Source: Escherichia coli
GTDB lineage: Bacteria > Pseudomonadota > Gammaproteobacteria > Enterobacterales > Enterobacteriaceae
NCBI RefSeq assembly: GCF_044324875.1
Contig: NZ_CP172185.1
Reading direction: 5' to 3' (one strand)
Length of the DNA: 64,000 nt
Part shown: positions 611-59,838 of the stretch, in pieces
How positions within the stretch are numbered: the first letter of the stretch is position 1
How the letters are laid out: each line of letters starts with the position of its first letter
The notes under the pieces: model-generated
Told to the model about the DNA's origin: nothing
Database searches by the model: none
Seen by the model: the letters and a program-made list of their open reading frames with translations, nothing else
Program-made: the position numbers and the translations under genes

Positions 611-3337
611 ATGGCTACAATTCATGTAGACGGCAAAGAATACGAGGTCAACGGAGCGGACAACCTGCTGGAAGCTTGTCTGTCTCTGGGCCTTGATATT
701 CCTTACTTTTGCTGGCATCCGGCGCTGGGAAGCGTCGGTGCTTGCCGCCAGTGTGCGGTGAAGCAATACCAAAACGCGGAAGACACGCGTGGTCGCCTGG
801 TGATGTCCTGTATGACACCGGCTTCCGATGGCACCTTTATTTCCATTGACGATGAAGAAGCGAAACAGTTCCGTGAAAGTGTGGTCGAGTGGTTAATGAC
901 CAACCACCCGCACGATTGTCCGGTATGTGAAGAAGGCGGTAACTGCCATCTTCAGGATATGACCGTGATGACCGGACACAGCTTCCGTCGCTACCGTTTC
1001 ACCAAACGTACCCACCGTAATCAGGATTTGGGGCCATTCATCTCTCACGAAATGAACCGCTGCATCGCCTGCTACCGCTGCGTGCGTTACTACAAAGATT
1101 ACGCTGACGGCACGGACCTGGGCGTTTACGGTGCACACGACAACGTCTACTTCGGTCGCCCGGAAGACGGCACGCTGGAAAGCGAATTTTCCGGTAACCT
1201 GGTCGAAATTTGCCCGACCGGCGTATTTACCGACAAAACGCACTCCGAGCGTTACAACCGTAAATGGGATATGCAGTTTGCGCCGAGCATCTGCCAGCAA
1301 TGTTCCATCGGCTGTAACATCAGCCCCGGCGAGCGTTATGGCGAACTGCGTCGAATCGAAAACCGTTACAACGGTACAGTAAACCACTACTTCCTCTGCG
1401 ACCGTGGTCGTTTCGGTTACGGTTACGTCAACCTGAAAGATCGTCCGCGTCAGCCAGTACAGCGTCGTGGCGATGATTTCATTACCCTCAATGCCGAACA
1501 GGCAATGCAGGGCGCAGCAGATATTCTGCGTCAGTCGAAGAAAGTGATCGGCATCGGTTCTCCGCGTGCCAGCGTGGAAAGCAACTTTGCGCTGCGTGAG
1601 CTGGTGGGCGAAGAAAACTTCTACACCGGTATCGCTCACGGTGAGCAGGAACGTCTGCAACTGGCGCTGAAAGTGCTGCGTGAAGGCGGCATTTATACGC
1701 CGGCACTGCGCGAAATCGAATCTTACGATGCGGTACTGGTGCTGGGCGAAGACGTTACCCAGACCGGTGCGCGCGTCGCGCTGGCAGTGCGTCAGGCGGT
1801 GAAAGGTAAAGCGCGCGAAATGGCGGCAGCACAGAAAGTGGCTGACTGGCAGATTGCGGCAATCCTCAACATCGGTCAACGTGCGAAGCATCCGCTGTTT
1901 GTTACCAACGTTGATGATACCCGTCTGGATGATATCGCGGCGTGGACTTACCGCGCACCGGTTGAAGATCAGGCGCGTTTAGGTTTTGCCATCGCCCATG
2001 CGCTGGATAACTCCGCGCCAGCGGTTGACGGAATCGAACCTGAGCTGCAAAGCAAAATCGACGTCATCGTGCAGGCTCTGGCGGGTGCGAAGAAACCGTT
2101 GATTATCTCCGGGACGAACGCTGGTAGCGCTGAAGTGATTCAGGCTGCGGCTAACGTGGCGAAAGCCCTGAAAGGTCGCGGCGCTGACGTCGGTATCACC
2201 ATGATTGCTCGCTCTGTAAACAGTATGGGGCTGGGCATTATGGGCGGTGGATCACTTGAAGAAGCGTTAACCGAACTGGAAACCGGACGCGCCGACGCGG
2301 TGGTGGTGCTGGAAAACGATCTGCATCGTCACGCTTCCGCTACCCGCGTGAATGCTGCGCTGGCGAAAGCGCCGCTGGTGATGGTGGTTGACCATCAACG
2401 CACGGCGATTATGGAAAACGCCCATCTGGTGCTTTCTGCTGCCAGCTTTGCTGAAAGCGACGGTACGGTGATCAACAACGAAGGCCGCGCCCAACGTTTC
2501 TTCCAGGTTTACGATCCGGCCTATTACGACAGCAAAACTGTCATGCTGGAAAGCTGGCGCTGGTTACACTCGCTGCACAGCACCCTGCTGAGCCGTGAAG
2601 TGGACTGGACGCAGCTCGACCATGTGATTGACGCTGTTGTGGCGAAAATCCCGGAGCTGGCAGGTATCAAAGATGCTGCGCCGGATGCGACATTCCGTAT
2701 CCGTGGACAGAAACTGGCCCGTGAACCACACCGTTACAGCGGTCGTACCGCCATGCGCGCCAACATCAGCGTTCATGAGCCGCGTCAGCCGCAGGATATT
2801 GACACCATGTTCACCTTCTCGATGGAAGGTAACAACCAGCCGACCGCGCACCGTTCGCAAGTGCCGTTTGCCTGGGCACCGGGCTGGAACTCCCCGCAGG
2901 CGTGGAACAAATTCCAGGACGAAGTGGGCGGCAAACTGCGCTTTGGCGATCCGGGCGTGCGTCTGTTTGAAACCAGCGAAAACGGTCTGGATTACTTCAC
3001 CAGCGTACCGGCACGCTTCCAGCCGCAGGACGGGAAATGGCGTATCGCGCCGTATTACCACCTGTTTGGCAGCGATGAATTGTCACAGCGTGCTCCGGTC
3101 TTCCAGAGCCGTATGCCGCAGCCGTACATCAAACTCAACCCAGCGGATGCCGCGAAGTTGGGTGTGAACGCGGGTACACGCGTCTCCTTTAGTTACGATG
3201 GCAACACGGTCACGCTGCCGGTTGAAATCGCCGAAGGGCTGACGGCAGGGCAGGTGGGCTTGCCGATGGGTATGTCCGGCATTGCTCCGGTGCTGGCGGG
3301 CGCGCATCTTGAGGATCTCAAGGAGGCACAACAATGA
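611..3337 (+). CDS. nuoG: NADH:quinone oxidoreductase subunit G
   Basis: Long ORF whose N-terminus has 2Fe-2S/4Fe-4S cysteine clusters typical of NuoG. Start taken at the second ATG (MATIHV..., 908 aa); the ORF track starts 6 nt earlier at 605. Confidence 0.93.
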
Positions 3338-53104: not shown

Positions 53105-55390
53105 TCAGATCTTACATGCGCCGCTTTCGCAGCCATCGTCCTGGATTGACGGCACCAGATCGTCTTGTGCGTCTTCAGCGCCGTCACGGGTGTTCTGATA
53201 ATACAGCGTTTTGACCCCGAATTTGTAGGCGGTGAGCAGGTCTTTCAGCAACTGCTGCATCGGCACTTTTCCTGACGGGAAGCGTGACGGATCGTAGTTG
53301 GTGTTAGCAGAGATCGACTGATCGATAAATTTCTGCATGATACCCACCAGTTGCAGGTAGCCATCGTTACCCGGCATTTCCCACAGCAGCTCATAGGCGT
53401 CGTGCAGATGCTCGTAGTCCGGCACCACCTGGCGCAGAATACCGTCTTTCGACGCTTTGATGCTGACGTAACCACGCGGCGGTTCAATACCGTTAGTGGC
53501 GTTAGAGATCTGCGAAGAGGTCTCGGACGGCATCAGAGCAGAAAGCGTGGAGTTACGCAGGCCGTGCGTTTTGATTGACTCACGCAGTGCTTCCCAGTCG
53601 TAATGCAGCGGCTCATTAGCGATGGCATCCAGATCTTTCTTATAGGTATCGATCGGCAGGATCCCTTTCGCGTAAGTGGTTTCGTTAAACCACGGGCACG
53701 CGCCTTGCTCTTTCGCCAGCTCGTTAGACGCTTTCAGCAGGTAATACTGAATGGCTTCGAAGGTTTTATGCGTCAGGTTGTTGGCGCTGCCGTCGGAGTA
53801 GCGTTTACCGTGCTTCGCCAGGTAGTAAGCGAAGTTGATCACACCAATCCCCAGCGTACGGCGACCCATCGCCCCGCGTTTGGCGGCCGGGATCGGGTAA
53901 TCCTGATAATTCAGCAGCGCGTCGAGTGCGCGTACCGCCAGAATTGCCAGCTCTTCCAGTTCATCCAGGCTGTTAATTGCGCCCAGGTTGAAAGCAGACA
54001 GCGTACAGAGCGCGATTTCACCGTTCTCGTCGTTGACGTCGTTCAGCGGTTTGGTCGGCAGGGCGATCTCCAGGCACAGGTTAGACTGGCGCACTGGCGC
54101 GATGGCCGGATCAAACGGGCTATGGGTATTGCAGTGGTCAACGTTCTGAATATAGATACGACCGGTAGACGCACGTTCCTGCATCATCAGCGAGAACAGC
54201 TCAACGGCTTTCACACGCTGCTTGCGGATGCTGTCGTCTTTCTCATATTTGGTATACAGACGTTCAAACTCTTCCTGATCGGCGAAGAACGCGTCGTACA
54301 GCCCCGGTACGTCGGACGGGCTGAACAGGGTGATATCTTCACCTTTCAGCAGACGGGTATACATCAGTTTGTTGATTTGTACCCCGTAGTCCATATGACG
54401 CACGCGGTTGCCTTCCACCCCACGGTTGTTTTTCAACACCAGCAGGCTTTCAACTTCCAGATGCCACATCGGGTAGAACAGCGTTGCTGCACCGCCACGC
54501 ACACCGCCCTGAGAGCAGGATTTCACCGCTGTCTGGAAATGTTTGTAAAACGGAATACAGCCGGTGTGGAATGCTTCGCCACCGCGAATCGGGCTACCCA
54601 GCGCACGAATACGCCCGGCGTTGATGCCGATCCCGGCACGCTGGGAAACGTATTTAACAATCGCGCTGGAGGTGGCGTTAATGGAATCCAGGCTGTCGCC
54701 GCACTCGATCAGTACGCATGAGCTGAACTGACGAGTCGGGGTACGCACGCCGGACATGATTGGCGTCGGCAGCGAAATTTTAAATGTGGAAACCGCGTCG
54801 TAAAAACGCTTCACGTATTGCAGGCGCGTTTCACGCGGGTAGTTCGAGAACAGGCACGCGGCAACCAGAATATAAAGGAACTGGGCGCTTTCATAGATTT
54901 CGCCGGTCACGCGGTTCTGTACCAGATATTTGCCTTCCAGCTGCTTAACGGCAGCATAAGAGAAGGTCATATCACGGTCGTGATCGATAAACGTGTCCAT
55001 CTGCTTGAACTCTTCTTCCGTGTAGTCTTCCAGCAGATGATTATCGTATTTGCCCATCTCGACCATTTTCACCACGTGGTCGTACAGCGCAGGCGGCTCA
55101 AACTGACCGTAGGCTTTTTTACGCAGGTGGAAGATCGCCAGGCGCGCGGCGAGATACTGATAATCCGGCGCATCACGGGAGATCAGGTCTGCGGCAGCCT
55201 TAATAATGGTTTCGTGGATGTCAGAGGTCTTGATACCGTCATAAAACTGAATGTGGGAGCGCAGTTCGACCTGGGAAATAGAAACGTTATGCAGTCCTTC
55301 TGCCGCCCAATCCAGAACGCGATGGATTTTGTCGAGATTGATGCGCTCTGTGCTACCGTCGCGCTTTGTCACCAGCAGATTCTGATTCAT
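53105..55390 (-). CDS. nrdA: Ribonucleoside-diphosphate reductase 1 alpha subunit
   Basis: 761 aa; N-terminal ATP-cone and class Ia catalytic domain. Confidence 0.95.
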   Translation of the reverse strand: MNQNLLVTKRDGSTERINLDKIHRVLDWAAEGLHNVSISQVELRSHIQFYDGIKTSDIHETIIKAAADLISRDAPDYQYLAARLAIFHLRKKAYGQFEPPALYDHVVKMVEMGKYDNHLLEDYTEEEFKQMDTFIDHDRDMTFSYAAVKQLEGKYLVQNRVTGEIYESAQFLYILVAACLFSNYPRETRLQYVKRFYDAVSTFKISLPTPIMSGVRTPTRQFSSCVLIECGDSLDSINATSSAIVKYVSQRAGIGINAGRIRALGSPIRGGEAFHTGCIPFYKHFQTAVKSCSQGGVRGGAATLFYPMWHLEVESLLVLKNNRGVEGNRVRHMDYGVQINKLMYTRLLKGEDITLFSPSDVPGLYDAFFADQEEFERLYTKYEKDDSIRKQRVKAVELFSLMMQERASTGRIYIQNVDHCNTHSPFDPAIAPVRQSNLCLEIALPTKPLNDVNDENGEIALCTLSAFNLGAINSLDELEELAILAVRALDALLNYQDYPIPAAKRGAMGRRTLGIGVINFAYYLAKHGKRYSDGSANNLTHKTFEAIQYYLLKASNELAKEQGACPWFNETTYAKGILPIDTYKKDLDAIANEPLHYDWEALRESIKTHGLRNSTLSALMPSETSSQISNATNGIEPPRGYVSIKASKDGILRQVVPDYEHLHDAYELLWEMPGNDGYLQLVGIMQKFIDQSISANTNYDPSRFPSGKVPMQQLLKDLLTAYKFGVKTLYYQNTRDGAEDAQDDLVPSIQDDGCESGACKI

Positions 55391-55467
55391 GTATGTCGTA
55401 CCTGTTTTTGGAATTCTTTCCGCAATAGTTTCATGCAGACTACCTGTAGTGAGGGAAGCTGCTTAGA

Positions 55468-55513
55468 ACACTATATATAGGGGGTATGTTTGGGATTCAC
55501 TGCAAGATAGTGT
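55468..55513 (-). promoter_or_regulatory. Candidate NrdR boxes in the nrdAB promoter region
   Basis: acactatatatagggg matches 14 of 16 positions of the NrdR palindrome acaCwAtATaTwGtgt as I recall it; a weaker half-site (atagtgtg) lies about 30 bp away. Confidence 0.5.
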
Positions 55514-56085
55514 GAAAATGGCCCTCTTGCAAGTGCATAACTTTGTGGATAACTCAGGAAGGAAAAAGTGGCTTTCGCGCACCTTAGGTCAGACAAGGTG
55601 TCCGGGAAAGTCAATGGGAAGAGAAAAATTTGTTAAAAATAACTGTTCGGCGATTTCTTGAACGGAAGAATAGGTTAGATAAATTGATATAGATGGTTTA
55701 TTAATCTTTTGGCTAATGATTGCAAAAATTGATCTAAGCACGAGTCATCACATAATCTGATGTATCAGTTATGGTCAATATATAAGCGAATGTAAGCGAT
55801 TGTTGATATCGAAATGGTTGTTTTCTCTTCGGTTGTTGTTAAATGCGAAGCCATTTTGTTAATTTACCTTATATTATAAGAAAATTATTCATTACTTTAA
55901 TTCAGTTTAAACATAACTGATATCCCTTAAGGTGATTAACTTGAATTATGACGCACTGATATTATTCATGAAATAATAACAAAATAGCCATTGCACCGGG
56001 TTGAACAATTTACAAAAGAAAAATAACCCATATCGTATAATGCGATTAAATATGCCGTCTTATAGAAAATGATGGTCAGATTAAT

Positions 56086-59000
56086 ATGCGGATTATTTTT
56101 CTACGCAAGGAGTATTTATCTTTACTCCCGTCAATGATTGCATCTCTTTTCTCTGCTAACGGTGTCGCGGCGGTCATTGATTCATGTCAGGGATATGATA
56201 TCAAAGCGAGTTGTCACGCCAGCAGGCAAAGCCTTTCAGGCATTACGCAGGACTGGAGCATCGCCGATGGGCAATGGCTGGTTTTTTCGGATATGACCAA
56301 TAACGCCAGCGGTGGGGCCGTATTTTTGCAACAAGGAGCGGAGTTTTCTCTATCGCCAGAAAATGAAACTGGAATGACTCTGTTTTCCAATAATACTGTC
56401 TCAGGAGAATATAATAACGGCGGGGCAATATTTGCTAAAGAAAACTCAACGCTGAATCTTACTAATGTTATTTTTTCCGATAACGTTGCAGGTGGCTATG
56501 GTGGCGCAATCTATTCTTCTGGTACTAACGATACCGGTGTCGTCGATTTAAGTGTCACTAACGCCGTGTTTCGCAATAACATCGCTAATGACGGCAAAGG
56601 TGGTGGAATTTATACCATCAACAATGACGTCTATTTAAGTAAAGTTATTTTTGATAACAACCAGGCATATACATCAACAAGTTACAGTGATGGCGATGGG
56701 GGTGCAATCGATGTCACCGATAATAATAGCGATATCACGCATCCGTCAGGTTTCACAATAATAAATAACACCGCATTTACAAATAACACTGCCGAAGGTT
56801 ATGGTGGGGCAATTTATACCAATAGCGTGTCGGCTCCCTATCTTATTGATATTTCGATTGATGACAGCTACAGCCAGAACGGCGGCGTGTTAATCGATGA
56901 GAACAATAGCGCGGCAGGTTATGGGGATGGTCCTTCCACTGCGGCGGGCGGCTTTATGTATCTCGGCTTAAGTGAAGTTACCTTTGATATTGCCGACGGA
57001 AAAACGCTGGTTATCGGCAATACAGAGAATGACGGAGCTGTTGACTCTATTGCTGGTACCGGGGTAATCACCAAAACAGGTTCCGGCGATCTGGTACTTA
57101 ATGCAGATAACAATGACTTTACTGGTGAGATGCAGATAGAAAACGGTGAAGTTACCCTGGGCCGCAGCAACTCCCTGATGAATGTCGGCGATACGCATTG
57201 CCAGGACGATCCGCAAGACTGCTATGGTCTGACGATAGGGAGTATTGATCAGTATCAGAATCAGGCTGAGCTAAACGTTGGCTCGACCCAACAAACTTTT
57301 GTGCACGCATTGACGGGCTTTCAGAATGGCACTTTAAATATCGATGCTGGTGGCAACGTTACTGTTAATCAGGGCAGTTTTGCTGGCACCATCGAAGGTG
57401 CTGGTCAGCTCACCATTGCGCAAAACGGCAGCTACGTGCTGGCAGGGGCTCAGTCGATGGCGCTAACTGGCGATATAGTCGTTGATGATGGCGCGGTGCT
57501 TACGCTGGAAGGCGACGCGGCAGATCTTGCCGCTCTCCAGGACGATCCGCAGTCGATCGTGTTAAACGGCGGTGTGCTTGATCTCTCTGATTTCGCCACC
57601 TGGCAGAGCGGCACATCATACAACGATGGCCTTGCAGTCAGCGGCAGCGGCGGTACGGTTATCGGCAGTCAGGATGTGGTGGATCTCGCAGGGGGCGACA
57701 ATTTGCATATCGGCGGCGACGGGAAAGATGGCGTCTACGTGGTGATCGATGCGGGCGACGGGCTGGTTAGCCTGGCAAACAATAATAGTTACCTGGGCAC
57801 CACGCAAATCGCTTCCGGTACGCTGGTGGTGAGCGACAACTCGCAGCTTGGAGATACCCATTGCAACCGCCAGGTTATCTTTACCGATAATCAACAAGAA
57901 AGCGTGATGGAGATTACTGCCAATGTCGATACTCGCTCTACAACGACTGAGCATGGGCGTGATATTGAAATGCGCGCCGACGGTGAAGTGGCAGTTGATG
58001 CGGGGGTAGACACGCAGTGGGGCGGACTGATGGCTGACAGCAGCGGGCAGCATCAGGATGAGGGTAGCACATTGACTAAAACGGGGGCGGGTACGCTGGA
58101 ACTGACCGCCAGCGGTACGACGCAGTCGGCGGTACGTGTCGAAGAAGGCACCCTGAAAGGCGATGTTGCGGATATCTTCCCTTATGCTTCGTCGCTGTGG
58201 GTCGGTGACGGGGCAACATTCAAGACTGGCGCGGATCAGGATATTCAGTCAATTGATGCTACTTCCAGCGGCACTATCGACATCAGCGATGGTACGGTTT
58301 TGCGCCTGACCGGGCAGGATACTTCCGTCGCCCTTAATGCCTCACTGTTTAACGGCGATGGGACGCTGGTGAATGCCACCGATGGTGTGACGTTGACAGG
58401 TGAGCTTAATACCAACCTTGAAACTGACAGCCTGACTTATCTTTCCAACGTGACGGTTAATGGCAATCTGACCAATACGTCCGGTGCGGTTAGCCTGCAA
58501 AATGGCGTCGCTGGCGATACGCTGACGGTAAACGGTGATTATACCGGCGGCGGTACGCTACTGCTCGATAGCGAATTAAACGGCGATGACTCGGCAAGTG
58601 ACCAACTGGTGTTGAACGGTAATACTGCTGGCAACACGACCGTGGTAATTAATCCCATTACGGGTATTGGTGAGCCGACATCTACAGGCATTAAAGTGGT
58701 TGATTTCGCAGCTGATCCCACGCAGTTTCAAAACAATGCGCAGTTCAGTCTGGCAGGTAGTGGCTACGTCAATATGGGAGCGTATGACTACACGCTGGTG
58801 GAAGATAACAACGACTGGTATCTGCGATCGCAAGAAGTAACGCCGCCATCGCCACCTGATCCCGACCCGACTCCCGATCCTGATCCCACACCGGATCCCG
58901 ATCCAACACCCGACCCAGACCCTACGCCTGCTTACCAGCCGGTGCTGAATGCCAAAGTTGGTGGATATTTTAATAACCTGCGGGCGGCAAATCAGGCGTT

Positions 59001-59838
59001 TGTGATGGAGCGACACGATCACGCTGGTGGCAATGGTCAGACGCTGAATTTACGTGTTATCGGCGGAGATTATCATTACACAGCAGCGGGGCAACTGGCT
59101 CAGCATGAAGACACTTCTACGGTGCAGCTTAGCGGCGACTTGTTTAGCGGGCGCTGGGGCACGGATGGCGAGTGGATGCTTGGGGCGGTTGGTGGCTACA
59201 GTGATAACCAGGGCGACAGCCGCTCGAATATGACCGGAACTTGCGCCGATAACCAGAACCACGGTTATGCCGTTGGTCTGACCTCAAGCTGGTTTCAGCA
59301 CGGTAATCAGAAGCAGGGGGCCTGGCTGGATAGCTGGCTGCAATACGCGTGGTTTAACAATGATGTTTCCGAACATGAAGATGGCGCGGATCATTACCAC
59401 TCATCGGGGATTATCGCCTCGCTGGAAGCCGGGTATCAGTGGTTACCGGGGCGTGGTGTGGTGATTGAACCGCAGGCGCAGGTGATTTATCAGGGCGTGC
59501 AGCAGGATGATTTTACCGCCGCTAACCATGCGCGCGTGTCACAATCGCAGGGGGATGATATTCAGACGCGGCTGGGTTTACACAGCGAATGGCGTACCGC
59601 GGTTGGTGTCACACCAACATTAGATCTGAATTATTATCACGATCCCCATGCGACGGAAATTGAAGAAGATGGCAGCACTATCAGTGACGATGCGGTGAAG
59701 CAACGGGGTGAAATAAAAGTGGGAGTCACGGGCAATATCAGTCAGCGAGTGTCCCTGCGTGGTAACGTGGCGTGGCAGAAAGGGAGTGATGATTTTGCCC
59801 AGACGGCAGGGTTTTTGTCGATGACGGTGAAATGGTAA
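56086..59838 (+). CDS. yfaL: AIDA-I-type autotransporter adhesin YfaL
   Basis: 1250 aa; N-terminal signal sequence, Gly/Asn/Thr-rich beta-helix passenger, (PDPDPT)n linker and C-terminal beta-barrel ending in W. Confidence 0.9.
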   Translation: MRIIFLRKEYLSLLPSMIASLFSANGVAAVIDSCQGYDIKASCHASRQSLSGITQDWSIADGQWLVFSDMTNNASGGAVFLQQGAEFSLSPENETGMTLFSNNTVSGEYNNGGAIFAKENSTLNLTNVIFSDNVAGGYGGAIYSSGTNDTGVVDLSVTNAVFRNNIANDGKGGGIYTINNDVYLSKVIFDNNQAYTSTSYSDGDGGAIDVTDNNSDITHPSGFTIINNTAFTNNTAEGYGGAIYTNSVSAPYLIDISIDDSYSQNGGVLIDENNSAAGYGDGPSTAAGGFMYLGLSEVTFDIADGKTLVIGNTENDGAVDSIAGTGVITKTGSGDLVLNADNNDFTGEMQIENGEVTLGRSNSLMNVGDTHCQDDPQDCYGLTIGSIDQYQNQAELNVGSTQQTFVHALTGFQNGTLNIDAGGNVTVNQGSFAGTIEGAGQLTIAQNGSYVLAGAQSMALTGDIVVDDGAVLTLEGDAADLAALQDDPQSIVLNGGVLDLSDFATWQSGTSYNDGLAVSGSGGTVIGSQDVVDLAGGDNLHIGGDGKDGVYVVIDAGDGLVSLANNNSYLGTTQIASGTLVVSDNSQLGDTHCNRQVIFTDNQQESVMEITANVDTRSTTTEHGRDIEMRADGEVAVDAGVDTQWGGLMADSSGQHQDEGSTLTKTGAGTLELTASGTTQSAVRVEEGTLKGDVADIFPYASSLWVGDGATFKTGADQDIQSIDATSSGTIDISDGTVLRLTGQDTSVALNASLFNGDGTLVNATDGVTLTGELNTNLETDSLTYLSNVTVNGNLTNTSGAVSLQNGVAGDTLTVNGDYTGGGTLLLDSELNGDDSASDQLVLNGNTAGNTTVVINPITGIGEPTSTGIKVVDFAADPTQFQNNAQFSLAGSGYVNMGAYDYTLVEDNNDWYLRSQEVTPPSPPDPDPTPDPDPTPDPDPTPDPDPTPAYQPVLNAKVGGYFNNLRAANQAFVMERHDHAGGNGQTLNLRVIGGDYHYTAAGQLAQHEDTSTVQLSGDLFSGRWGTDGEWMLGAVGGYSDNQGDSRSNMTGTCADNQNHGYAVGLTSSWFQHGNQKQGAWLDSWLQYAWFNNDVSEHEDGADHYHSSGIIASLEAGYQWLPGRGVVIEPQAQVIYQGVQQDDFTAANHARVSQSQGDDIQTRLGLHSEWRTAVGVTPTLDLNYYHDPHATEIEEDGSTISDDAVKQRGEIKVGVTGNISQRVSLRGNVAWQKGSDDFAQTAGFLSMTVKW
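58855..58926 (+). repeat. Tandem repeat encoding a PDPDPT proline-rich linker within yfaL
   Basis: Repeated cc(t/c)ga(t/c)cc(n)ac(n) units encoding PDPDPTPDPDPTPDPDPTPDPDPTP. Confidence 0.8.

Follow-up and report, generated by a model that had tools for sequence, protein, structure and literature searches.

The intergenic gap between the divergent genes nrdA and yfaL in this Escherichia coli strain is the well-studied E. coli nrdAB control region joined to AT-rich upstream DNA of yfaL of the H-NS type, a real and ordinary feature that is already known. The best overall explanation, with a probability of about 0.9, is that the gap is made of two adjoining DNA pieces of unlike history. The genes nrdAB encode the essential aerobic ribonucleotide reductase, and their promoter is a classic case in which DnaA and NrdR link the supply of dNTPs to replication. 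Sites, statistics, conservation and mosaic structure reported below come from the present analysis of a 64-kb stretch of DNA (the window); binding and regulation are taken from the K-12 literature and, we infer, would hold in this strain as well. Nothing in the main finding exceeds what has been published for K-12. The analysis pins each element to window coordinates and distinguishes a control module that is old and conserved from a young region of H-NS type upstream of yfaL.

Organization and mosaic structure of the nrdA-yfaL gap

The gap occupies positions 55391-56085 (695 bp). On its left, nrdA is a 761-aa ORF on the minus strand (53105-55390) with its ATG start codon at 55388-55390; on its right, yfaL is a 1250-aa ORF on the plus strand (56086-59838) with its start codon at 56086-56088. 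Both genes carry these names in the RefSeq annotation of a 99.9% identical genome, where the nrdA start is also annotated, and the RefSeq product of yfaL is the AIDA-I family autotransporter adhesin YfaL/EhaC. The first-pass annotation, which had described a gap of about 700 bp between divergent nrdA and yfaL, was therefore correct on this point. The gap was recovered at a coverage of at least 80% in 5423 of 5426 complete E. coli genomes, and its annotation reads nrdA/ypaB/yfaL. The corresponding nrdA-ypaB-yfaL gap of K-12 (NC_000913.3 2344170-2344864) has the same length, 695 bp, with segment identities of 94-100%. Common to the two are the -35 and -10 hexamers, the DnaA boxes, NrdR boxes 0 and 1, the HusR boxes and the ypaB ORF, and they differ by scattered substitutions within the AT-rich part.

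Base composition changes sharply along the gap. The GC fraction per 100-bp window was 0.41-0.46 beside nrdA and 0.22-0.34 beside yfaL, and AT content rose from 57.5% at 55391-55665 to 71.2% at 55666-56085, the window averaging 48.6%. Of all 420-bp stretches in the 64 kb, 55679-56098 has the highest AT content; it nearly coincides with this distal part and confirms the earlier remark that the roughly 450 bp next to yfaL are very AT-rich. The accompanying mention of long A/T tracts was overstated, as the longest run made of A and T only is 11 bp; tracts of at least four A or four T occur at 21 per kb, compared with 9 per kb in the window.

The change in composition is matched by a change in conservation. 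The nrdA-proximal part (55391-55665, minus strand) is delimited as a conserved nrdA control module by its identity to E. albertii (84.1% in the leader, 98.2% in the promoter and DnaA boxes, 92.0% at 55553-55665) and to Pseudocitrobacter (77-91%). The distal part, 55666-56085, is hypervariable, its identity to divergent Escherichia and to Pseudocitrobacter falling to 38-56%. Comparison with divergent Escherichia alone gave the same mosaic, 84-100% identity in the proximal part and 45-56% in the distal part, and 55666-56085 diverges together with the yfaL allele. Across Enterobacterales, ubiG lies immediately before nrdA in 68 of 80 loci and yfaL is present in 4 of the 80. These comparisons showed that yfaL, together with the AT-rich DNA upstream of it, was inserted into an ancestral ubiG-nrdA arrangement in a restricted set of lineages; the AT-rich piece would have arrived with the adhesin gene as it inserted between ubiG and nrdA.

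NrdR boxes of the nrdAB operator

The near-consensus NrdR palindrome noticed in the first pass was located at 55468-55483 (ACACTATATATAGGGG). It has 2 mismatches to the 16-bp NrdR consensus tested (two partially palindromic 16-bp boxes, acaCwAtATaTwGtgt) and no other position in the window comes within 3 mismatches of it. The chance expectation at that threshold is 0.53, so that the match alone is unconvincing, and the single DnaA pattern TTWTNCACA was likewise unconvincing alone (7 observed and 5.1 expected in the window, a lone box not being above chance). The weight was therefore put on a matrix trained independently, on pairs of boxes and on phylogenetic footprinting instead of single-motif tests.

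The independent NrdR matrix was trained on the four nrdHIEF and nrdDG boxes only. Among 63,985 positions it placed the palindrome, read on the minus strand as box 1 (CCCCTATATATAGTGT, 55468-55483), at rank 1 with 17.1 bits; box 2 (TCACTACAGGTAGTCT, 55437-55452, minus strand) at rank 2 with 11.3 bits; and box 0 (TCACACTATCTTGCAG, 55500-55515, minus strand), which includes the -10 hexamer TATCTT (55504-55509), at rank 15 with about 8 bits (7.75-8.0). The pair scores of 28.4 for boxes 2 and 1 and 24.8 for boxes 1 and 0 both exceeded the maximum of 19.3 in 200 simulated sequences, so the NrdR box pairs lie above background in the matrix scan that had been proposed as a check. The three boxes are in phase, with linkers of 15 bp between boxes 2 and 1 and 16 bp between boxes 1 and 0 (31-32 bp from start to start), and lie 47-125 nt before the nrdA ATG of the ribonucleotide reductase operon. 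According to published criteria, the critical NrdR positions are C4, G13 and A6, with a contribution from T11; boxes 1 and 2 carry all four bases, and box 0 has C at position 6. Each of the 79 Enterobacterales genomes scored has a high-scoring box (10.7-18.6 bits) at the place of box 1; its distance to the nrdA ATG downstream is 73-161 nt, in most cases 90-125 nt. The earlier claim of a half-site about 30 bp from the palindrome holds insofar as such a site exists; there are two rather than one, box 0 and box 2 flanking box 1 on either side.

The same sites constitute the published E. coli nrdAB operator (PMC12176259). In that work, NrdR bound K-12 box 2 (GTACTACAGGTAGTCT) together with box 1 with a KD of about 113 nM, and boxes 0 and 1 with a KD of more than 6000 nM in vitro. 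An earlier gel-shift study, to the extent that it is recounted there, found no effect on binding of a box 0 mutation and loss of binding upon mutation of box 1 (PMC12176259). A C6A change in box 0 has been published to raise NrdR affinity 10-fold. By analogy with these 2025 data, the functional nrdAB operator would consist of boxes 1 and 2, with the classical upstream half-site, box 0, excluded from it. Box 2, within the nrdA leader, would be the functional partner of box 1, and the present analysis adds to the first pass that the half-site upstream of the palindrome, which overlies the -10, is probably not that partner. The present box 2 starts with TC and the K-12 box with GT, and it thus differs from the tested oligonucleotide at the first two bases.

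The classical view pairs the boxes the other way: NrdR would act through boxes 0 and 1, occluding the -10 and the start site, both of which box 0 spans in its published description, and box 2 would be incidental. Conservation speaks for this arrangement, since the upstream box with its 16-bp linker is the conserved partner in Enterobacterales, with median scores of 11.4 bits in 53 genomes with one promoter architecture (type B, see below) and 7.4 bits in 26 with the other (type A), while the downstream position has a median score below 0 outside Escherichia; the pair score of boxes 0 and 1 also surpasses every simulation. However, the difference in KD, the gel-shift results as recounted and the C at critical position 6 all argue against box 0, and its conservation in type-A promoters is explained by its overlap with the -10 hexamer. 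We consider it unlikely that boxes 0 and 1 form the operative operator and favor boxes 1 and 2. The latter resemble the nrdHIEF and nrdDG operators, which have two 16-bp boxes with a 15-bp linker and C4 and G13. Unlike those operators, that of nrdAB has a third in-phase box over the -10, and its functional pair would lie downstream of the start site, within the leader.

Promoter, DnaA, HusR and Fis sites

The nrdA promoter has the -35 hexamer TTGCAA (55527-55532, minus strand), conserved in type-A genomes, and a 17-bp spacer to the TATCTT of box 0. The leader is about 110 nt long (55391-55500, minus strand), its start at about 55497-55500 being inferred from the -10 hexamer, and its predicted RNA structure did not go beyond that of shuffled sequences (z = 0.06). 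A consensus promoter scan of the gap returned 6 promoter-like sites where 3.7 ± 2.0 were expected. The nrdA promoter escaped it because this promoter matches the consensus at only 8 of 12 positions; a scan that overlooks the true nrdA promoter is uninformative for locating that of yfaL.

A scan for DnaA sites, also proposed earlier, revealed tandem boxes beside the core promoter (55532-55552, minus strand). In pattern searches, TTATCCACA (55544-55552) has no mismatch to TTATNCACA and TTATGCACT (55532-55540), which abuts the -35, has one; the two are 12 bp apart and form one of only two same-strand DnaA box pairs within 30 bp of each other in the 64 kb. The spacing between TTATCCACA and box 1 is constant in 26 type-A genomes. 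The case for DnaA rests on the tandem pair and this conservation across genomes, and binding itself would follow by analogy with K-12, for which DnaA regulation of nrdAB has been reviewed (PMC8203912). Further upstream are two HusR (YnfL) boxes (55555-55605), CACTTTTTCCTTCCTG (55555-55570, minus strand) and the palindrome CAGACAAGGTGTCCGG (55590-55605), which match exactly the boxes listed for the ypaB/nrdA gap (PMC12844172). A Fis-like site, GGTCAATATATAAGC (55773-55787), matches GNNYAWWWWWTRNNC exactly, as do only two other sites in the 64 kb, and is situated about 280 bp upstream from where nrdA transcription would start; Fis binding at the nrd region is cited in the literature, the same review included (PMC8203912). 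A repeat search of the gap gave short matches only, as expected in AT-rich DNA, among them a 31-nt direct repeat with 74% identity, and a published '45-bp inverted repeat' was not recognised in it.

Taken with the K-12 literature, these sites suggest how the promoter may work. A sigma-70 promoter (TTGCAA, 17-bp spacer, TATCTT) would place the start of transcription about 110 nt ahead of the nrdA ATG. DnaA, through the two boxes abutting the -35, would activate or repress according to its level and bound nucleotide. NrdR would bind in the presence of dATP plus ATP or ADP, and at this step nrdAB transcription would be shut off when dNTPs are plentiful, with box 0, over the -10, as a weak third site in phase. 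HusR would act from its boxes further upstream, where Fis and IciA sites probably lie too.

The ypaB reading frame

RefSeq annotates a 47-codon ORF, ypaB, on the plus strand (55518-55661), where it overlaps the -35, the DnaA boxes and the HusR boxes; CRISPRi work likewise noted that ypaB contains the nrdA promoter (PMC6242692). The first-pass suggestion that the spacer might hide a short ORF is borne out to the extent that one is annotated; this ORF sits over the promoter, on the nrdA side of the gap, and does not look like conserved coding sequence. No Shine-Dalgarno sequence is visible before its ATG. The start codon is CTG in the B2 strain JJ2434, the annotation is absent in 4 of 4 sampled genomes of the roughly 90% haplotype, E. 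albertii has a TGA stop at codon 18, and of the copies on mobile elements the P7-type one is frameshifted and that of pEC19 stops at codon 35. A search for a YpaB family in NCBIfam, Pfam and PHROGs gave no match at E <= 1, and the second YpaB residue, Thr in K-12, is Ala in this strain. An intact ORF with a ribosome-binding site kept in relatives and membership in a curated family, as looked for in a small-protein gene, are thus both missing from ypaB.

Positions 55596-55650 are nearly invariant at every codon position. Together with the broken copies in relatives, this points to constraint on DNA rather than on a protein, and the sequence comparisons suggest that ypaB is probably not a conserved protein-coding gene but an artefact that arises from the conservation of regulatory DNA. 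Several observations would instead fit a genuine stress-induced small-protein gene transcribed away from nrdA, with coding constraint behind the conservation of 55553-55665: the ORF is annotated in most E. coli, RT-qPCR showed a HusR-dependent rise of ypaB in stationary phase (PMC12844172), published RNA-seq showed 9.6-fold induction by AZT, no more than about 5 bp separate the end of the conserved block from the ypaB stop codon, and P1 and P7 have a counterpart ORF, UpfO. The defects in start, frame and family described above weigh against such a gene, as does the DNA-level pattern of invariance, and the underlying -35, DnaA and HusR sites explain the conservation. A coding role for ypaB is accordingly improbable in our estimate, and we keep to the reading of conserved regulatory DNA.

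The AT-rich DNA upstream of yfaL

H-NS has a high-affinity motif, TCGATAAATT, reportedly defined by Lang et al. 2007. TAGATAAATT (55676-55685, plus strand) matches it at 9 of 10 positions and serves as no more than a weak indicator; when up to 2 mismatches are allowed, the gap contains 2 sites, a density of 2.9 per kb compared with 1.1 per kb outside it, which is a slight enrichment. High AT content and lineage restriction, both expected of horizontally acquired H-NS-type DNA, were found in 55666-56085. The K-12 yfaL/ypaB gap, the counterpart of this part, is one of 78 published 'promoter islands' and is itself recorded as bound by H-NS in every ChIP-chip study that was compared (Panyukov and Ozoline 2013, PMC3661553). 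Like these islands, the present region is AT-rich and adjoins a lineage-restricted gene; unlike what the label implies, a simple consensus scan of the present gap gave only the weak excess of promoter-like sites mentioned above. In addition, phenotypes of yfaL, including biofilm, have been studied by placing a constitutive promoter before the gene (PMC3764049). The ChIP-chip data, this experimental practice and the lineage-restricted insertion support, by analogy for the present strain, the earlier proposal of H-NS-type DNA before a silenced adhesin gene. In this mechanism, 55666-56085 would keep yfaL silent, and H-NS and Fis bound there would also modulate nrdAB. Part of the region may also serve nrdAB by carrying candidate upstream nrd elements (Sun et al. 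1994). An agn43-style Dam/OxyR phase switch for yfaL was considered and rejected, there being one GATC only in the gap, at 55731.

The first pass had also raised the idea that the spacer hides a small RNA. An unannotated small RNA or further small gene in the AT-rich spacer might be expected from its 420 bp without an annotated feature, from several promoter-like hexamer pairs on both strands and from the short abortive RNAs described for 'promoter islands' (PMC3661553). However, a permissive Rfam search of the gap gave chance-level matches only, the best of 19-20 bits against gathering thresholds of 50-94 (IS605-orfB-I at 19.5 bits, gathering 94, and two snoRNA models), and a scan for intrinsic terminators in the gap found none. 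ORFs of at least 30 aa inside the gap are confined to the proximal part, and the distal sequence is not conserved, with 38-56% identity between Escherichia lineages that have the flanking genes in common. A hidden gene of this kind is very improbable, and no sign of a small RNA was seen.

Promoter architectures across Enterobacterales and copies in phages

In a comparison of Enterobacterales from which Salmonella and Shigella were left out, the nrdA promoter showed two architectures. Type A (26 genomes, among them Escherichia and Pseudocitrobacter) has the DnaA boxes upstream of the -35; in type B (53 genomes, among them Citrobacter, Klebsiella and Enterobacter) they form an inverted pair in the leader. 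These three type-B genera are equally close by nrdA sequence. The DnaA boxes of Escherichia and Pseudocitrobacter are one helical turn closer than those of Yersinia and Serratia. A strong downstream NrdR box 2 occurs in the Escherichia lineage only, and elsewhere in Enterobacterales the upstream box 0 is the conserved partner.

Copies of the E. coli-type promoter are carried by P1/P7 phages and P1-like phage-plasmids, where an 'nrdA-like promoter' with a DnaA box lies upstream of hot (GenBank M95666, NC_005856). The P7-type copy is 95.4% identical to 55514-55643 and the P1-type copy 82.6% to 55514-55628. They reproduce the gap exactly at the -35, at the DnaA boxes and over most of the spacer (as far as CCATTTTC), and they have a ypaB-like ORF, UpfO. 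Unlike the nrdA promoter, the phage copies have TATTGT or TACTGT as the -10 and are without NrdR boxes; where nrdA would stand, they have a conserved leader and a hydrophobic ORF of 45 aa. This ORF had no family match, and an Rfam scan of the P1 region found no known type I toxin-antitoxin RNA. Tentatively, these comparisons raise the possibility that the E. coli nrdAB promoter is a laterally exchanged module, not orthologous to the promoters of the nearest genera, and that the Escherichia NrdR operator has moved by one box. If the side observations hold, they would represent clear promoter turnover, possibly with phage-mediated exchange, at an essential gene.

Identity and composition of the nrdA/yfaL gap

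The first-pass annotation read the region at 55391-56085 as the spacer between divergent nrdA and yfaL. A 761-aa ORF on the minus strand at 53105..55390 bears the RefSeq name nrdA in the best-matching genome, and a 1250-aa ORF on the plus strand at 56086..59838 is annotated by RefSeq as the AIDA-I family autotransporter adhesin YfaL/EhaC. Megablast with 55300-56200 matched 5425 of 5426 complete E. coli genomes (coverage at least 80% in 5423), and the best match, at 99.9% identity, carries nrdA, ypaB and yfaL. The gap in K-12 has the identical length of 695 bp. Therefore, the ORF limits and the annotated genomes agree that 55391-56085 is exactly the nrdA/yfaL intergenic region. It is a thoroughly studied nrdAB control region together with a known H-NS-bound island; the original observation was confirmed and its interpretation was essentially right.

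The GC content per 100-bp window is 0.41-0.46 on the nrdA side versus 0.22-0.34 on the yfaL side. AT content is 57.5% in the nrdA-proximal part (55391-55665) and 71.2% in the distal part (55666-56085), against 48.6% for the whole window, and the most AT-rich 420 bp within the 64 kb is 55679-56098. The description of long A/T tracts goes too far: no run of A/T alone exceeds 11 bp, and tracts of four or more A or T occur at about twice the window density. A 31-nt direct repeat in the AT-rich DNA upstream of yfaL (55909-55939 and 56019-56049; 74% identical, 110 bp apart) is probably a chance match in low-complexity sequence.

The nrdA promoter and its NrdR operator

Read on the nrdA (minus) strand from promoter to gene, the elements are DnaA boxes TTATCCACA (55552-55544) and TTATGCACT (55540-55532), the -35 hexamer TTGCAA (55532-55527) and, after a 17-bp spacer, the -10 hexamer TATCTT (55509-55504), which lies inside the classical upstream NrdR box 0 (TCACACTATCTTGCAG, 55515-55500). 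A 16-bp linker separates box 0 from NrdR box 1 (CCCCTATATATAGTGT, 55483-55468) and a 15-bp linker separates box 1 from box 2 (TCACTACAGGTAGTCT, 55452-55437) on its nrdA side; the order ends with the nrdA ATG at 55390. The second half-site noted about 30 bp from the NrdR palindrome is present, but there are two of them, boxes 0 and 2, flanking it on both sides.

A consensus search of the whole window allowing up to three mismatches returned box 1 alone. Since 0.53 matches are expected by chance, this search is weak by itself, and a matrix independent of nrdAB was therefore built from four nrdHIEF and nrdDG boxes (PMC12176259). Among 63,985 16-mers, the matrix ranked box 1 first (17.1 bits), box 2 second (11.3) and box 0 fifteenth (7.75). 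The box pairs at 31-32 bp spacing scored 28.4 and 24.8, compared to a maximum of 19.3 in simulations of 200 first-order Markov sequences, so that the NrdR motifs stand clearly above background.

With K-12 oligonucleotides, NrdR bound boxes 1 and 2 with a KD of ~113 nM versus >6000 nM for boxes 0 and 1, and Rozman Grinberg et al. (2025, PMC12176259) concluded that the true NrdR site lies downstream of the promoter and consists of boxes 1 and 2. A 2026 preprint blamed the failure of box 0 on C at position 6 and named C4 and G13 as crucial. Boxes 1 and 2 of the window have C4, A6, T11 and G13, and box 0 has C6. The only differences between this box 2 and the K-12 box 2 used in the binding assay are at positions 1-2 (TC here, GT in K-12), which are polymorphic within E. 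coli (TC, GT, TT or GC). Taking the nrdA start site as ~55497-55500, the operator of boxes 1 and 2 lies at about +18 to +64; NrdR therefore probably works from a position immediately downstream of the polymerase and not by masking the -10.

Of 5658 matching records, 1139 are 90-95% identical, a band that includes a haplotype of ~90% identity. JJ2434, the sole genome of this haplotype examined, has a 13-bp deletion (GGAATTCTTTCCG, window 55410-55422) in the nrdA leader between box 2 and the ribosome-binding site.

DnaA, Fis and HusR sites

The window contains 7 DnaA 9-mer matches versus 5.1 expected, so a single box is not above chance. Tandem pairs of this kind occur only twice in the 64 kb, and one of them is the pair that abuts the -35; the distance from TTATCCACA to box 1 is fixed in all 26 genomes with a type-A promoter (described below). 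A strict Fis pattern has three exact matches in the window, among them GGTCAATATATAAGC (55773-55787); the position of this Fis-like site, ~280 bp upstream of the start site, would agree with a distal Fis site at the nrd promoter. DnaA control of nrdAB is well documented (PMC8203912), and both HusR boxes published for the ypaB/nrdA gap are matched exactly, at 55555-55570 and 55590-55605 (PMC12844172). An inverted repeat, CACCTT-N9-AAGGTG (55583-55603), overlaps the palindromic HusR box, and the type-B genera keep a related GCCTTAT...ACTTAGCG element about as far upstream of nrdA. The two elements may mark a common binding site of a LysR-type regulator (HusR or ArgP/IciA).

The short ORF ypaB and the small-RNA question

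The first-pass annotation suggested that the spacer could hide a short ORF or small RNA. RefSeq annotates ypaB, a 47-codon ORF on the plus strand (55518-55661), which sits over the -35 and over both the DnaA and the HusR boxes, but it is most likely not a protein gene, and there was no sign of a small RNA. A functional YpaB protein would be in keeping with the HusR-dependent rise of the ypaB transcript in stationary phase (PMC12844172) and its 9.6-fold induction by AZT. However, ypaB has no Shine-Dalgarno sequence, its ATG at 55518 is CTG in the B2 strain JJ2434, and the annotation is missing in all four sampled genomes of the ~90% haplotype. Codon 18 is TGA in E. albertii, a frameshift interrupts the copy of the P7 type, and a further plasmid copy ends at codon 35. 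In addition, 55596-55650 is almost invariant with all codon positions alike, and no protein family in NCBIfam, Pfam or PHROGs matched. A functional protein gene is thus quite improbable, and the conservation of this region is most likely regulatory.

A small RNA in the gap was also rejected. An Rfam search of the region gave no match near threshold, terminator prediction found none in the gap, the nrdA leader folded no better than its shuffles, and the distal 420 bp, the sole unannotated stretch, is not conserved.

Insertion of yfaL and its AT-rich upstream DNA

The gap was aligned from K-12, an O157-type strain, a B2 strain, the divergent 'E. coli' L010, E. albertii and Pseudocitrobacter. E. 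albertii is 84% identical in the leader, 98% in the promoter and DnaA boxes and 92% over 55553-55665; distally, its identity falls to 56% and 46%, and L010 and Pseudocitrobacter follow the same pattern. The break tracks yfaL, which is 66-72% identical in these three genomes versus 87-97% for the adjacent nrdA at the DNA level. Among 80 Enterobacterales loci, 68 have ubiG as the immediate upstream neighbour of nrdA, on the same strand and with its end 350-634 bp from the ATG, and no yfaL in the spacer; the loci with yfaL number four (E. coli, E. albertii, Pseudocitrobacter and Enterobacteriaceae bacterium RIT691). Taken together, the distal drop and this synteny show that yfaL was inserted, along with its AT-rich upstream DNA, into the ancestral ubiG-nrdA spacer. 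The yfaL alleles diverge strongly: when those of L010, L011, L016 and L031 were compared with 56086-59838, amino-acid identity was 74% for L010 and E. albertii, 70% for Pseudocitrobacter and 56% for RIT691.

The K-12 yfaL/ypaB gap is listed among 78 'promoter islands' and was scored as bound by H-NS in every ChIP-chip study compared (PMC3661553), repression of nrdAB by H-NS has been published, and the yfaL biofilm phenotype was obtained with a constitutive promoter placed before the gene (PMC3764049). The earlier view of yfaL as an H-NS-silenced adhesin gene would fit the inserted AT-rich DNA, the K-12 island and this promoter insertion. According to the title of Sun et al. (1994), cell-cycle control of nrd also needs an upstream AT-rich sequence; going by that title, the AT-rich part is therefore probably common to nrdA and yfaL.

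Two nrdA promoter types in Enterobacterales

In a survey of 79 Enterobacterales (loci L010-L089; 230 nt upstream of nrdA, with the ATG at locus position 3001), nrdA promoters split into two clean types. Type A, with TTATCCACA upstream of the TTGCAA -35 and the -10 TATCTT within box 0, was found in Yersiniaceae, Hafniaceae, Budvicia, Dickeya, Brenneria, Escherichia and Pseudocitrobacter. Type B, found in Citrobacter, Klebsiella, Enterobacter, Kosakonia, Pantoea, Erwinia and Pectobacterium, has the -10 TAGAAT, ACTCACCATATAGCGT as box 0 and no upstream DnaA box; in its leader, TTATCCACA begins one base past box 1 and an inverted TGTGGATAA follows ~31 bp beyond. The nrdA coding sequence of Pseudocitrobacter is 86.8% identical to that of E. 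coli and those of the type-B genera 85-89%, which leaves Pseudocitrobacter no nearer to E. coli than they are; the distribution is therefore patchy. Escherichia and the phage copies have the DnaA box at -69 from box 1, 10 bp nearer than the -79 of the remaining type-A genomes.

The score of box 2 is 11.3 bits for E. coli (55437-55452), 7.7 for E. albertii and 6.9 for Pseudocitrobacter; for the remainder of L010-L089 the median is below 0. A high score for this downstream box 2 is peculiar to Escherichia. At its position in other genera, the half-site (A/T)CAC(T/A)A alone is widely kept, and the upstream box 0 is the conserved partner, scoring 11.4 bits in type B. The strong box 2 in Escherichia alone and the type-B box 0 score suggest that the NrdR operator moved by one box in the Escherichia lineage.

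Copies in P1-like phage-plasmids

Window 55514-55643 is copied directly upstream of hot, which encodes a theta-subunit homologue, in P1, P7 and about 300 P1-like phage-plasmids, with some 318 plasmid records matching (P1, 1501-1615 of L005; L004, 3001-3129; L002, 3001-3115). The P7-type copy is 95.4% identical over 130 bp and the P1-type copy 82.6% over 115 bp. Within the copied segment lie the DnaA boxes, the -35 and most of the spacer, together with a ypaB-like ORF; UpfO is the phage counterpart of YpaB, and GenBank M95666 and NC_005856 already label the segment 'nrdA-like promoter' and 'dnaA box'. This promoter faces a highly conserved leader of ~200 nt, in which a 21-codon ORF and a hairpin accompany a strong ribosome-binding site (AAGGAG).

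After the leader lies an unannotated hydrophobic ORF of 45-46 aa (MTAFFQFLSAFLDAPVISQILAIILIIVLILLLRSVKNGIMHWLT) on the minus strand (P1, 1094..1231 of L005; L002, 2575..2715; also in the P7-like copy in L004). The region has no family match in Pfam, PHROG or Rfam. Most of the differences in this ORF between P1 and pEC19 fall at third codon positions or are conservative, which points to a genuine small membrane protein. Two annotated promoters on the plus strand, P1upfM and P2upfM, run antisense to this ORF, a layout that recalls type I toxin-antitoxin systems.
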